Source: a bacterium (lineage in GTDB: Bacteria; Bacillota; DTU030; JBMNJR01). Taken from it: 64,000 bases of DNA. The stretch covers positions 8,547-72,546 of the forward strand of contig JBMNJR010000009.1 of the NCBI GenBank assembly GCA_050951765.1, given 5' to 3'. A program made the position numbers and the translations under genes. The notes under the pieces were generated by a model. The model did not search any database. It saw only the letters and a list, made by a program, of their open reading frames with translations, and had not been told where the DNA came from. Shown piece after piece: positions 22,165 to 26,941 of this stretch (positions are counted from its first letter, which is position 1; every line of letters starts with the position of its first letter).

Positions 22165-23343
22165 GTGGGAACAGCACTGTTTTTAATTCGTTATGGGGAA
22201 ATTGGCCTCAAAGGGAAAAACCAAAAGTTTTTTTTGCATACACTTTTGACCAGGATGAAACAGGCATTGGCTCCCCTGGGGAAAGCCCGTTATTGGAAAA
22301 CCCAGGGGCGACTCTTTGTGGAAATGGAAACTGATCATGAGGCGGAAGAAGCATTAACAAGGCTGCAGCGGGTGTTCGGGATTGTTTCCGTTAGTCCGGT
22401 GCGGAGAGCACCCTTAGACTTAGAGTCAATTAAAGATGTAGCTTTGGCTGAGCTAAAGGCGGCCCAAGCAACGGAGGGCGGCTCTACTTTTAAGGTGGAG
22501 GCCAGGCGGGCTGATAAGTCTTTTCCCTTTAATTCCATGGAAATCAACCAATTGGTGGGCGCGCATCTGTTGGAGCATACCGCAGGGCTATCTGTGGATG
22601 TTATAGAGCCTGATTTGCGGGTAAGAGTCGAAATAAGGGAAGAGGCTTATATATATACCCGGATGATACCGGGCCCCGGCGGTTTGCCCTTGGGGACCAG
22701 CGGGCGGGCGGTTCTGCTTTTATCCGGCGGGATTGACAGTCCGGTGGCCGGTTGGATGACAATGAAGAGGGGAGTCAAAATCACTCCCGTATATTTTCAT
22801 AGCTTTCCCTTTACCGGTGATCGGGTAAAGGAAAAAGTGATCGACCTGTGTCAGGTTATGGCCGGTTATGGAGGAGATATGGACTTATACGTGGTTCACT
22901 TTACTGAGATTCAAAAGAGTTTGGCGCAAAACTGCCCCGAGGATTTAGGTACCATTTTAATGCGCCGGATGATGATGCGCCTGGCGGAGAGAATTGCCCA
23001 AAAAGTGGGCGCTAAGGCTTTGGTTACCGGTGAGAGTATCGGCCAGGTTGCCAGCCAAACCTTAGAGTCTTTAATGGTCACCAATGCGGTAGTTCAGTTG
23101 CCGGTGTTCAGGCCGTTGATCGGTTTGGACAAAGAAGAGATCATAAAACGATCGCAAGCCATTGGAACCTATGATATTTCTATTCGCCCTTATGAAGACT
23201 GTTGCACTGTCCTTGTTCCCAAACATCCGGTGACTAAGCCCCGGCTGGAGCAGGTAGAGAAAGCTGAGGAAGCATTGCCTCTGGAAGCGTTATTGCAGGA
23301 GGCATTGGAGCGGACGGAAGTAATTTCCTTGCAGGCGTACTGA
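22165..23343 (+). CDS. thiI: tRNA 4-thiouridine synthase
   Basis: YGEIGLKG, THUMP, LLSGGIDSPVA, GQVASQT, EDCC. Confidence 0.95.
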   Translation: MGTALFLIRYGEIGLKGKNQKFFLHTLLTRMKQALAPLGKARYWKTQGRLFVEMETDHEAEEALTRLQRVFGIVSVSPVRRAPLDLESIKDVALAELKAAQATEGGSTFKVEARRADKSFPFNSMEINQLVGAHLLEHTAGLSVDVIEPDLRVRVEIREEAYIYTRMIPGPGGLPLGTSGRAVLLLSGGIDSPVAGWMTMKRGVKITPVYFHSFPFTGDRVKEKVIDLCQVMAGYGGDMDLYVVHFTEIQKSLAQNCPEDLGTILMRRMMMRLAERIAQKVGAKALVTGESIGQVASQTLESLMVTNAVVQLPVFRPLIGLDKEEIIKRSQAIGTYDISIRPYEDCCTVLVPKHPVTKPRLEQVEKAEEALPLEALLQEALERTEVISLQAY

Positions 23344-23534
23344 CAATTATATTTTGTATTAGACCAGCTAATTAAAGTCAAGGGTTTTTGAAGAAAAAGA
23401 TTTATAAAAGTTGAGAAATCTCTAGCACAAAAAAGGGTATCACAACAAGACCACCTAAGCGAGGTAGACATAATATAGCCGGTCTAAAACAGCAATTTGT
23501 TCTTTGAAAACTAAACATCAAGCAACAAGTATTA

Positions 23535-24824
23535 CTATGCCGCTTTACGCTTTGCTGCAAGCATCTGAGCGTGTTCCTGGGGGCTACGTAGCTCATATGG
23601 CTTTCTGTCTCTTAAAACGGCAAATATGATACAAACAAGCTTACGCATAACAGCACCCAAAGCCACTTTCTTAGGCCTGCTTTGGCACTTGCGCTTGTAA
23701 AACTCCATCAGTACAGGGTTACATGGTTTCTTATCCCGTTTGGTTCGGATATTGGCAAGCGCAACTGTAAAGAGTACTCTGCGCAGCAACTTCGGTCCCC
23801 TTTTGGACATTTTGTTGCGTGTACCGATAAACTCTCCGGATTGCATGACGGATGGGTCAACGCCGAAATAAGCGACCAGCTTGCCCGGTTTTGAGAAGGC
23901 AGAAAAGTCACCGGCCTCTGCAAGAATGGTAGCTGCCGTAAGAAGACCGATACCCGGGATGCTCTGTAAAAGCTCAAGTGTTAATGAGAGCATGGGAGTA
24001 TCCTTAGTCATATCTTCTGTGATTAGCTGACGTATGGCTTTAAGGATTTTTGCGAGGTTTTCGTCCAATGTTTTAATCATGGAAATATATATACCCATCA
24101 TTGCAATGTTCGAGGGGTTATTGATACTAAGGGACGCGAATTCCCTGGCTTTGGATACTAAAAGCTCATATTTGGCGGTTGACCATTCAAGGCTTTTGTG
24201 TGAATTATCCCGGATTAATGAAACCAGGTCGCCTTTATTAGCCTTAAGAATATGCTCGGGAGTAGGGTACTGCTCCAGGACGGCTATAGCAGCTTTTGAG
24301 AATGCATTGGGGAAGACATCCTTAAAGCTTAACATGACTTGGTCAATAATACCGGTAAGCCTGTTTTTGTATACGGTAAGCTCATCGCTTAGTTTGTAGT
24401 ACTGGCGGCATAAGCTTCTTAAGCACTCAATGTCCTCATTGGGAATATTGGTGGACTTAAGTTCCTGAAATCTGCAGAGCAGTGCAATCTTACGGGCATC
24501 CACTTTATCATTTTTCACTTTCCTGATTCCGATATTTTTGATAGAATCAGTTTGGATGGGGTTTGTAACAGAAACCTCAAATCCAGCTTTACAAAGTGAA
24601 TGGAAAAGGATTTTGTGATAGTGCCCGGTAGATTCCATGACTACGAAAGGCCTTGAAGCAAAATCTTTTTCCATTTTTCGAAGCAGCTCAATGGCCCTTT
24701 TCACGTCAGTGTTGGAATCATGGTGGATTTTCAGGCGGGCAACCACTTCATTGGATGGAGAAAGAATAACCATCTCACTGAAGAACTTACCCACATCAAT
24801 TCCTGCAATAGGTCTTAAATTCAT
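23535..24824 (-). CDS. IS110 DEDD transposase/recombinase
   Basis: GIDVGK, MESTGHY, KNDKVDA, IPGIG, QSG, SKRG. Confidence 0.95.
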   Translation of the reverse strand: MNLRPIAGIDVGKFFSEMVILSPSNEVVARLKIHHDSNTDVKRAIELLRKMEKDFASRPFVVMESTGHYHKILFHSLCKAGFEVSVTNPIQTDSIKNIGIRKVKNDKVDARKIALLCRFQELKSTNIPNEDIECLRSLCRQYYKLSDELTVYKNRLTGIIDQVMLSFKDVFPNAFSKAAIAVLEQYPTPEHILKANKGDLVSLIRDNSHKSLEWSTAKYELLVSKAREFASLSINNPSNIAMMGIYISMIKTLDENLAKILKAIRQLITEDMTKDTPMLSLTLELLQSIPGIGLLTAATILAEAGDFSAFSKPGKLVAYFGVDPSVMQSGEFIGTRNKMSKRGPKLLRRVLFTVALANIRTKRDKKPCNPVLMEFYKRKCQSRPKKVALGAVMRKLVCIIFAVLRDRKPYELRSPQEHAQMLAAKRKAA

Positions 24825-24834
24825 CTAAAAGCCT

Positions 24835-25240
24835 CCTTCACAAGATTAATGGACTTAAAAGTCACCATTCCTTTCCGAGTAAGCAAACAACCTTGCATGT
24901 GACACGAGGAACCAGCTAAAGAGCCGGCCTCAACCAGCCAAATCATGTAGACTTACCGGAATGGATAAATACTCTAACTCACGGGTAATCGGCCCGCTAA
25001 GGTCCGTCCCAGGAGGTGTTACACATACCTTCCAAGTCCGAAGAGTATTATACATGACTTTAAAGGTTCAGGCCAGCCAAATGCTGGCAGGCGGCTAAAG
25101 ATATGAAACCGCAAACGACAGAAATTTGAGGCCGCTGCCCTCCCCTAGGAGAGGACACATAGAAGTGCTTGATGTTTAGAAGGGTAATAGATAGAACGTT
25201 ATGTTAACAGAGCTAAACAGTGGCAAAAACCACTGATAAA
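24835..25240 (-). ncRNA. Candidate IS110 bridge RNA in the non-coding end
   Basis: Long non-coding end downstream of the junction promoter; 9-nt match to donor end; stems such as AATACTCT/AGAGTATT. Confidence 0.5.
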
Positions 25241-25273
25241 ACAACTATACTAATTGTACAAGGAGGTGCATAT

Positions 25274-26941
25274 GTGAGTGGGAAGACCCTTTCTTTGATT
25301 CCCTTAGGCGGGATCAGAGAGATTGGCAAGAATATTTCGGTAGTGGAGTATGGGGAAGATATTTTGGTAATTGATGCAGGGATTGCCTTCCCCGATGAAA
25401 ACCAGTTGGGAATTGATCTGGTGATTCCCGATATTACTTATTTAGAAGAGAATAAAGAGCGGGTGCGGGGTATTGTTTTAACCCATGGGCACGAGGATCA
25501 TATTGGAGCCCTACCTTATGTTTTACCTGTGCTCGATGTCCCGGTGTACGGCACCAAATTGACCATTGGCCTGGTAAAACGGAAACTGGAGGAACACCGG
25601 TTATTGAAAAAGGCGAAGTTAAATGTTGTTCAACCGGGGCAGCGATCGTCGATTAAATTGGGCCCGTTTCAGGTGGAATGGATACGGATCAATCACAGTA
25701 TTCCCGATGGGTGTGCGCTGGCCATTCATACCCCCACAGGGATAATATTGCATACGGGAGATTTTAAGATTGATCCTACCCCTATTGACGGACGTTTAAC
25801 CGACTTGCCGCGGTTGGGGCAGTTGGGGCAGGAGGGCGTTTTGGTAATGATCTGTGATGCAACCAATGCCGAGCGCCCCGGTTATACTCCGTCGGAAAAG
25901 GTGGTGGGTGAAACTCTAGATGCAGTTTTTGCATCCACAAAGGGCAGGCTTCTGATTGCCACTTTTGCTTCCAATATTCATCGCCTCCAACAGGTAATTA
26001 GCACTGCCGCCCGTTATGGCCGGCGGGTGGGAATTGTGGGGCGCAGTATGCGCAATAATGTGGCTGTGGCAGAGGAACTGAACTATTTGGACGTGCCGAA
26101 GGGTATTTTAATTGAGTTGGATGAAGCAAACCAGTTGCCGGATGATCAGGTGGTGCTGATTACTACGGGAAGTCAGGGCGAACCGATGGCTGCCTTAACC
26201 TTGATGGCCAACCAGGAGCACCGCCAGGTACAGATTAAACCCGGCGATACGGTGTTATTTTCAGCTACAGCCATTCCCGGCAATGAGCGGTTGGTAAGCC
26301 GTACCATAGATAATCTTTTCCGTTTGGGAGCCAATGTAATCTATGGGAAGACAAGCCAGGTCCATGTGTCCGGCCACGCAAGCCAAGATGAATTGAAGCT
26401 GATGTTAAACCTGGTTAAGCCCGCCTTTTTAATCCCTTTCCATGGTGAATATCGGCACTTAACTGCATTTAAACAGGTGGCACAAGAGGTGGGCATTAGT
26501 AGTGAACGGGTGATTATGCCGGAATTGGGAGAACGTTTGGAAGTTGGTCCGCAGGAAATTATTCGGCGGAAAAAGGTTCCGGCTGGGCCGGTACTTATTG
26601 ACGGCTTGGGAATTGGCGATGTGGGGAATATTGTCTTACGTGATCGGCAGGCCCTGGCAGAAAACGGGATTTTGTTGGCTGTGGTGGTGATGGAAAAAGA
26701 GACAGGCAAATTTATTGCCGGCCCTGATTTGATTACCCGCGGGTTTATTTATGTGCGGGAATCAGAGGAGATGTTAGAAGCAGCCAGACAACAGGTAGTG
26801 CAAGAACTGGCTGCCATTGAAAAAAAAGGGATCACCGATTGGTCGCAGATAAAAACCAGGTTGAGACAGGTCCTAAGTGAGTATTTTTATACTGAAATAG
26901 CAAGACAACCGATTATTTTGCCGATAATTATTGAAGTTTAG
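25274..26941 (+). CDS. rnj: Ribonuclease J
   Basis: GGIREIGKN, THGHEDHIG, HVSGHAS; GTG start after AGGAGG. Confidence 0.95.
   Translation: MSGKTLSLIPLGGIREIGKNISVVEYGEDILVIDAGIAFPDENQLGIDLVIPDITYLEENKERVRGIVLTHGHEDHIGALPYVLPVLDVPVYGTKLTIGLVKRKLEEHRLLKKAKLNVVQPGQRSSIKLGPFQVEWIRINHSIPDGCALAIHTPTGIILHTGDFKIDPTPIDGRLTDLPRLGQLGQEGVLVMICDATNAERPGYTPSEKVVGETLDAVFASTKGRLLIATFASNIHRLQQVISTAARYGRRVGIVGRSMRNNVAVAEELNYLDVPKGILIELDEANQLPDDQVVLITTGSQGEPMAALTLMANQEHRQVQIKPGDTVLFSATAIPGNERLVSRTIDNLFRLGANVIYGKTSQVHVSGHASQDELKLMLNLVKPAFLIPFHGEYRHLTAFKQVAQEVGISSERVIMPELGERLEVGPQEIIRRKKVPAGPVLIDGLGIGDVGNIVLRDRQALAENGILLAVVVMEKETGKFIAGPDLITRGFIYVRESEEMLEAARQQVVQELAAIEKKGITDWSQIKTRLRQVLSEYFYTEIARQPIILPIIIEV

Follow-up and report, generated by a model that had tools for sequence, protein, structure and literature searches.

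The window analysed here is the whole of a 64,000-nucleotide (nt) stretch of contig JBMNJR010000009.1, from a bacterium of the Bacillota (assembly GCA_050951765.1; host genome of 2.26 Mb in 15 contigs). On its minus strand, within 23360-25270, lies an insertion sequence (IS) of the IS110 family, whose open reading frame (ORF; 24824..23535) encodes a transposase, or recombinase, of 429 amino acids (aa), and which stands antisense to, and directly upstream of, rnj, the gene for RNase J. The element is a real and complete IS110-group insertion sequence with a bridge RNA, and belongs to a known kind of system. An earlier note on this DNA, made from the letters alone, had already described a complete IS110 element with a 429-aa enzyme, a long non-coding end and a candidate bispecific bridge RNA; these parts of its description stand, but its left end, its core and its target have to be replaced.

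The transposase and the ends of the element

The N-terminal DEDD RuvC-like domain of the protein is recognized by PF01548 (3.6e-31, residues 7-164, with the entire profile covered) and the C-terminal Tnp domain by PF02371 (2.3e-24, residues 284-363). The NCBIfam model NF033542 ('IS110 family RNA-guided transposase') scores 250.5 bits against a cutoff of 140, and two solved structures are matched by sequence across both domains, ISCro4 (9t56, 1.5e-24) and IS621 (8wt6, 3e-22). The motifs GIDV, MEST and KNDKVDA, which align with ISCro4, and MSKRG, which aligns with MSKAG of 9t56, contain D10, E64, D106 and D109, and S340, respectively; with IS621 in mind, we take these five to be the candidate catalytic residues. 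The gene is preceded by a Shine-Dalgarno sequence of its own (AAGGAGG, 24832..24838, minus strand). Upstream of it the non-coding left end (LE) measures 436 nt, as compared with 172 nt for the right end (RE), and this arrangement is that of the IS110 type, not of the IS1111 type, in which the long non-coding region lies downstream; the note had put this end at about 425 nt, and the non-coding stretch that precedes the ATG comes to about 430 nt. By reading, the ends (TGTACAATTAG... and ...TTAGCTGGT) bear no inverted-repeat relation to each other, and the IS110-group features of a 2-nt core at both junctions and of site- and orientation-specific insertion are found as well. About 70 nt past the transposase stop, a terminator-like hairpin with a T-run (23451-23467, minus strand) is kept in the right ends of relatives (the CTACCTCGCTTAGGTGG region).

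Five full copies of the element and one that is cut by a contig end are present in the host genome, and they are 100% identical over 1,909 nt. Alignment of the flanks gives a common block running from CACCTCCTTGTACAATTAGTATAG... (window position 25268) to ...TTGACTTTAATTAGCTGGTCTA (23360). To the left of 25252, where the earlier note had set the left end, 16 more bases (CACCTCCTTGTACAAT) are identical in all five full copies, and CACCTCCTTGTACAATTA (an 18-mer that includes the TA) occurs in the entire 2.26 Mb solely beside copies of the element; it cannot, therefore, be a natural target conserved five times over, and TTGTACAAT is DNA of the element. The single polymorphism among the copies, CACCACC for CACCTCC in the copy on contig C6, affects the outermost bases of the block and thus identifies them as flank. 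No copy was found in 40 related genomes, and the relatives offered no empty site with alignable flanks, the host genome being alone in its family.

The bounds were refined with relatives of the element. A search retrieved 80 loci, of which about 37 were inspected and about 25 related elements were used for boundaries. Acetivibrio, Thermoclostridium, Petroclostridium (five copies) and many digester metagenome-assembled genomes contributed the relatives at 63-85% aa identity, whose two non-coding ends can both be aligned with those of the element in the window. The right ends of the close relatives all read ..AGCTGGT-CT, followed by T or A, and their left junctions all read ..CTCCT or ..CCCCT, followed by (T/A)GTAYRAT; since the bases preceding CT vary between sites, the duplicated dinucleotide is CT. 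The same dinucleotide is found at both junctions in every copy of the host genome, with the C6 difference falling 2-3 nt outside the left core, and right ends of the form GGT-CT, GAT-CT or AGT-CT are shared by all own copies and by 24 of 26 related right ends. The element (23361..25260, minus strand) has a length of 1,900 bp if the core is included once. The left CT core, which precedes the right donor half (RD) at all junctions, occupies 25261..25262 (AG on the plus strand, within the Shine-Dalgarno sequence of rnj), RD begins at 25260, the left donor half (LD) finishes at 23363, beyond the transposase gene, and the right CT core follows at 23361..23362. Four loci depart from this pattern: L030 has an aberrant right end (GCTGGTTCT, with GGTTCT), L035 has no recognizable right end, and in L027 and L047 unrelated DNA replaces the left end together with the bridge RNA; all four are probably decayed or interrupted copies.

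These bounds differ from those of the earlier note, in which the element spanned 23360-25252, had a TA core and a target TTTTGTAT-TA-ATTGTACA, formed a promoter TTGACT-N17-TATAGT upon joining of its ends, and used the TTAGCTGGT string at 24919-24911 as donor guide. The strings on which this model was built are present on the minus strand (TTGACT-TTAATTAGCTGGTC-TA running to 23360, TA-G-TATAGT at 25252-25244), the 17-nt spacing is right for a TA junction, and TTAGCTGGT, which occurs both at 24919-24911 and at 23371-23363, fits the donor end at 9 of 9 positions. As an end of the element, however, the left string fails, because copies and relatives place the left end 8-10 nt further out; the note had named in advance differing ends in other copies as grounds for giving up its proposal, and at the left end they do differ. 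The 16 bases that the model leaves outside are shared by copies at five unrelated loci, and it is implausible that a target should be conserved over 16 nt on its one side but over 0 nt on its other; what was proposed as the target is half flank and half element. The apparent TA is composed, on the right, of the core T and the first target base and, on the left, of two bases inside the element, and in relatives CT is followed by T at 16 of 22 right junctions, which leaves no TA at these sites. We accordingly assign this model almost no weight, also in view of the promoter and hairpin data given below; and, with the core being CT, the distinction that it drew between this element and IS621 on account of the CT core of the latter disappears.

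Insertion at Shine-Dalgarno sequences

When read on the opposite strand, the left flank together with the core is AGGAGGTG, or AGGTGGTG in one copy, at all five visible left junctions, and an ORF (57 aa or longer) begins 5-10 nt beyond this junction in every one of the five copies, with the element antisense to the gene. The target is (C)ACCTC-CT-A, which is the reverse complement of a Shine-Dalgarno sequence. At the locus in the window the left target half (LT, ..CACCTC; 25263..25271, minus strand) corresponds, on the plus strand, to GGAGGTG, the Shine-Dalgarno sequence of the RNase J gene, 5 nt after which the gene starts with GTG at 25274; the right target half (RT) is AATACA (23355..23360, minus strand), and its first base is A in all six own copies. 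The element thus sits on the far side of the Shine-Dalgarno sequence, and AGGAGG and the start codon are preserved.

One could also suppose that the element ends at 25268 and carries an outward Shine-Dalgarno sequence of its own, with CACCTCC as IS DNA, in which case it would insert unspecifically before start codons and donate a ribosome-binding site (RBS) to the gene. The block common to four of the five copies does reach 25268, and every copy abuts a start codon at the distance of a Shine-Dalgarno sequence. Nevertheless, the one polymorphism in otherwise identical copies falls precisely in this heptamer, and relatives differ there site by site (ATACCTCCT, ACTCCTCCT, TACCTCGCT, CACCAGCCT), as expected of flank. 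Moreover, rnj genes that lack the element in genomes of the same order have GGAGGTG or GGAGGAG at the equivalent place, from which it follows that the Shine-Dalgarno sequence of rnj is native (the gene is about 74% identical in this comparison, which was used solely for that point). A junction at 25268 also yields no promoter, and a segment of the internal RNA matches the bases of the heptamer and covaries with them. Donation of an RBS by the element is for these reasons quite unlikely, and in what follows CACCTC is treated as target.

Two minor observations concern the adjacent rnj gene. The listed 573-aa RNase J ORF begins at a GTG at 25220 (plus strand), that is, inside the element, and annotation pipelines could over-extend the gene in this way. 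No terminator-like site was recognized on the plus strand within the element, so read-through transcription from thiI across it to rnj is conceivable from the sequence.

The predicted bridge RNA and its guides

L027 and L047 have upstream regions that could not be aligned, and were left out. The alignment of 18 sequences over LE positions 172-412 supports an RNA structure with a 5' stem-loop, a long target-binding stem-loop (TBL) and a donor-loop hairpin. In this alignment 95.7% of 674 cells are paired, as compared with 31-48% in controls with slid partners, and compensatory changes occur in 8 pairs, as compared with 3.3 +/- 1.3 in shuffled alignments (0 of 500 reaching the observed number). 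On the minus strand the 5' stem-loop (GCCAG/CTGGC; helix 1, 92.5% of cells paired) is at 25072..25088, the TBL, with an internal loop and a covarying inner hairpin (helices 2-7; an RNAalifold consensus was also obtained), at 24943..25057, and the inner hairpin of the donor loop (GAGG-CCGGCT...AGCTGG-CCTC; helix 8, 98.3% paired, with 2 compensatory pairs) at 24906..24931. The TTAGCTGGT string at 24919-24911 forms the 3' strand of the latter hairpin and covaries with its partner strand, with two compensatory cases at pair 186/195, and distant relatives with the same LD have unrelated hairpins in place of this segment; both facts speak against the donor-guide role once given to it. A contig of RNA library X15 (record 15) matches 25030-25263 without differences and continues for 230 nt unlike the window; it does not bear on transcription, its strand or its start, and is compatible with a further copy of the element inserted elsewhere in that community. 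In addition, CCATTCC in the 3' strand of the TBL stem (24964-24958, LE 305-311) is perfectly complementary to GGAATGG past the donor loop (24870-24864, LE 399-405); both segments are conserved, and could be engaged in an alternative or tertiary pairing.

Assignment of the guides followed Durrant et al. 2024 (PMC11208160), by whose orientation rules the left target guide (LTG) and left donor guide (LDG) pair with the bottom strand, and hence read like the top strand, the right target guide (RTG) and right donor guide (RDG) pair with the top strand, and the core is included in each. The LTG (ACACCTC-CT; 25011..25019, minus strand) lies directly 5' of the inner hairpin of the TBL and has the same sense as LT plus core, with which it agrees at 8 of 9 positions (core included) in the window, at 7-9 of 9 at the five own junctions, and at a mean of 7.35 of 9 over 23 junctions; it also tracks targets that deviate from the consensus, as in L044 (GCCGCCCCT, 9 of 9). 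The RTG (TGAGTT-AG; 24974..24981, minus strand), directly 3' of the same hairpin, is the reverse complement of core plus RT. Over 22 junctions with 10 distinct guides (the right end of L035 and the aberrant one of L030 being left out of the counts), 82 of 132 positions on the right-hand side of the core agree with its reverse complement, the first base doing so at all 22 junctions; the guides of other elements agree at 2.0 of 6 positions, and none of 5000 permutations reached the observed total. The A that opens RT in all own copies is complementary to the RTG as well.

On the donor side, the LDG (TTGGCTGGT; 24933..24941, minus strand) matches LD (TTAGCTGGT) with 8 identical positions and one G-T wobble, guide and donor are fully pairable in 21 of 26 elements, and in two lineages a changed LD is matched by a changed LDG (L055, TTGACTGG; L064, TAACTGGT). 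The core of the RDG (A-AG-G; 24891..24894, minus strand), which belongs to a motif GC-N-AG-G, is complementary to the core plus the first base of RD: its variable base N complements the first base of the element at each of 23 close junctions, in A-T or T-A combinations, and with the distant relatives L059 and L062 (C-G) and L064 (G-C) all four pairs are seen. As far as sequences can tell, therefore, the left end specifies a predicted bridge RNA in which all four guides are located, each backed by covariation across relatives. The covariation of the loops with target and donor, to which the earlier note had pointed as a check, is thereby seen, and the target guides, for which the note could give no confident location, are placed at 25019-25011 and 24981-24974.

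The same RNA could be viewed as no more than a structured leader at the 5' end of the transposase mRNA, with a regulatory role such as concealing the RBS of that gene, and CACCUCCU as an anti-Shine-Dalgarno element rather than a guide. This string is indeed complementary to the AAGGAGG that precedes the transposase gene (24838-24832). Such a role, however, leaves three of the four guides unexplained: it does not account for the covariation of the RTG with the bases upstream of each insertion site, for that of the RDG base with the first base of the element through all four nucleotides, or for the changes of the LDG with LD in L055 and L064. Furthermore, guiding is experimentally established for homologous proteins and RNAs in the accounts, as far as drawn upon here, of PMC11208160 and 10.1101/2025.10.25.684509. 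A leader function in place of guiding appears, on this balance, improbable, and we retain the assignment of the RNA as a bridge RNA.

Proposed mechanism and related systems

Joining of the two ends at CT gives TTGACT-17-TACAAT, the spacer being composed of 13 nt, the CT and TG. The -35 half (TTGACT; 23376..23381, minus strand) is found 13 nt before the core, a distance at which TTGAC[TA] occurs in 19 of 20 elements (14 nt in the remaining one), and the -10 half (TACAAT; 25253..25258, minus strand) 2 nt after the core, where relatives likewise show, after 2 nt, a TANNNT hexamer (TACAAT, TATAAT, TAAGAT or TATGAT). A promoter split between the two ends, with TTGACT as one half, had been proposed in the earlier note and is retained; its -10 box TATAGT is not conserved in relatives, and although TTGACT-N17-TATAGT is arithmetically correct, it does not represent the junction, TATAGT being a second, coincidental -10-like box 9 nt further in. 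A simple promoter scan of the integrated left end found no sigma-70-like site on either strand, which fits an expression dependent on the circle. A conserved TATAAT at LE 219-224 (about 25050-25045), which was considered as an internal promoter for the bridge RNA, was rejected since the scan was negative and the string overlaps a covarying stem (helix 2). Between promoter and bridge RNA there is also an additional insert of about 55 nt, rich in GC and able to form a hairpin (TCTCCTAGGGGAGG...GCGGT; approximately 25161-25109, LE 108-160), which is common only to L026, L028, L029 and, in part, L037, and is absent from the other relatives.

Taken together, these data make it very probable that we are dealing with a 1,900-bp IS110-group element with a CT core, a split promoter and a Shine-Dalgarno target, which recombines under the guidance of a bridge RNA. 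In the proposed mechanism the excised circle would have a junction ...GGT-CT-TGTACAAT, and the joining at CT would build a sigma-70-type promoter (TTGACT, 17-nt spacer, TACAAT) from which the left end, with the bridge RNA, and the transposase would be transcribed from the circle only. The bridge RNA, of about 230 nt (approximately 25090-24860), would comprise the 5' stem-loop, the target-binding loop and a donor-binding loop (DBL). Its LTG (ACACCUC-CU) would pair with the sense strand of the Shine-Dalgarno DNA of the gene, its RTG would read the 1-5 bases upstream of the Shine-Dalgarno site, and LDG and RDG would read the joined ends of the circle. Insertion would then take place at CCTC-CT-(A), with the element antisense and directly 5' of the AGGAGG of the gene, which would survive. 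The element looks active, as suggested by the identity of its copies and by its studied relatives IS621 and CazIS110-1; by analogy with the same two systems, circle formation, promoter activity, expression of the RNA and the chemistry of recombination are expected to be similar here.

Several observations weigh against this interpretation. In four (X1, X2 and X4, DNA; X15, an RNA library) of 24 sequencing runs, all of them available as assembled contigs, neither a joint that skips the element nor a circle junction was found, in assemblies whose flank contigs end about 25-30 nt into the repeat, as is typical of k-mer assemblies, and two scans of metagenomes with exact flank strings gave 0 matches. 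A scan of 22800-25800 with Rfam 15 at E<=1 returned no family. Some 160-200 nt separate the predicted junction promoter from the start of the bridge RNA further downstream, whereas in IS621 the RNA begins directly at the promoter, and the CT core is not matched by the LDG, in which GGU is followed by UG. The RTG of the element itself predicts AACTCA, which the six own sites fit at only 2-4 of 6 positions (4 of 6 in the window), and right-side recognition past the first base would thus have to be loose or not required. Finally, L048 (1140-1180) on its left side and L054 (1-60) on both sides sit in flanks unlike their own guides; in L048 the LTG GAGTGGCT is mismatched to the flank AAGAGAACT, with the right side fitting at 5 of 6 positions. 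These two sites may represent off-target or half-matched insertions, or later rearrangements.

The closest well-characterized counterpart is IS621 of E. coli (structures 8wt6-8wt9), with which the element shares a two-domain DEDD and Tnp recombinase, a CT core, and, in the terms of PMC11208160, a promoter, here a predicted one, split across the RE-LE junction, a non-coding left end upstream of the gene that encodes an RNA in which a 5' stem-loop is joined by a pair of stem-loops with internal loops, and guides of which LTG and LDG have the sense of the DNA while RTG and RDG are its reverse complement, in each case with the core included. Apart from the distance between promoter and RNA, it differs from IS621 in having about 100 additional aa between the two domains of its protein (429 vs 328 aa). 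The target of IS621 is a REP-type repeat, whereas here it is a Shine-Dalgarno sequence, and the hosts are clostridial.

For mycobacterial members of the IS900/IS901/IS902 type, insertion is orientation-specific and takes place next to the RBS of a host gene; the consensus target is located between this site and the start codon, and an IS900-type insertion separates the two. The element described here, which belongs to another phylum and has a distant protein, inserts beyond the Shine-Dalgarno sequence and leaves it and the start codon intact. IS900 is placed in the IS110 family, and its hed ORF is without an RBS and a start codon of its own, in the part of PMC8141618 that deals with it. In the work on ISEc11 and seekRNA elements by Siddiquee et al. 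2024 (PMC11187229), the IS110 type has its non-coding region upstream of the transposase, with an RNA that selects the target, and a circle junction that makes a promoter; the seekRNA described there is shorter, consists of the target-recognition part only, and has other targets.

For CazIS110-1 of Caloranaerobacter azorensis, a thermophilic Firmicute in which it has 10 copies, small-RNA sequencing and in-vitro activity of a bridge RNA with TBL and DBL are described in the main text of 10.1101/2025.10.25.684509, in which, figures and supplements apart, the terms Shine-Dalgarno, RBS and ribosome binding are absent. A locus of C. azorensis among our relatives (L071, at just 41% aa identity, which may correspond to CazIS110-1 or to CazIS110-2) has the same layout of LDG, hairpin and RDG and the same TTGACT...CT right end, with CCCCCT-TGTAAGAT as left junction. 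Our literature searches returned no paper that links bridge RNAs to Shine-Dalgarno targeting.

With regard to practical consequences, the correct ends (23361-25260, with CT core) define the element, expose the over-extension of the 573-aa RNase J ORF and explain why six copies lie directly before genes. The element provides a natural bridge-recombinase system with fully assignable guides, and its relatives, which differ in RTG and RDG, a useful natural series of reprogramming. Homing to Shine-Dalgarno sequences would represent an abundant and orientation-defined natural target that spares the translation signals of the host; the known mechanism is unchanged by it.

The nature of the target brings in the 3' end of 16S rRNA. 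The four 16S genes of the genome end in GGATCACCTCCTTTCTA, and the LTG is identical to this anti-Shine-Dalgarno tail over CACCTCCT; in the clade the LTG is UCACCUCCU, and here ACACCUCCU, the same string as the 16S 3' tail. The LTG thus reads the Shine-Dalgarno sequence on the sense DNA strand of the gene as the ribosome reads it in the mRNA, and in several relatives LTG and RTG jointly spell a perfect extended Shine-Dalgarno sequence, which again coincides with the 3' end of 16S. There is about an even chance, in our judgement, that this clostridial IS110 clade (36-85% aa identity) has fixed its LTG as a copy of the 16S anti-Shine-Dalgarno, which would turn every strong ribosome-binding site into a landing pad. 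The comparison suggests further that the right guide is what distinguishes the lineages of the clade, and that the placement of the crossover spares AGGAGG and the start codon. More speculatively, the anti-Shine-Dalgarno guide might additionally mask the Shine-Dalgarno sequence of the transposase itself in a full-length transcript. Among the insertions seen, none is in rDNA. The base adjacent to the core is A at the sites of the element and T in the 16S gene: the 16S 3' ends on contigs C1, C3, C6 and C11 of the host genome (G000) end in TCACCTCCTTTCTA, which agrees with the LTG in 8 of 9 bases and has T where the RTG of the element expects A. In relatives such as L023, L029 and L046, the guide pair would agree with this tail at about 13 of 15 positions.

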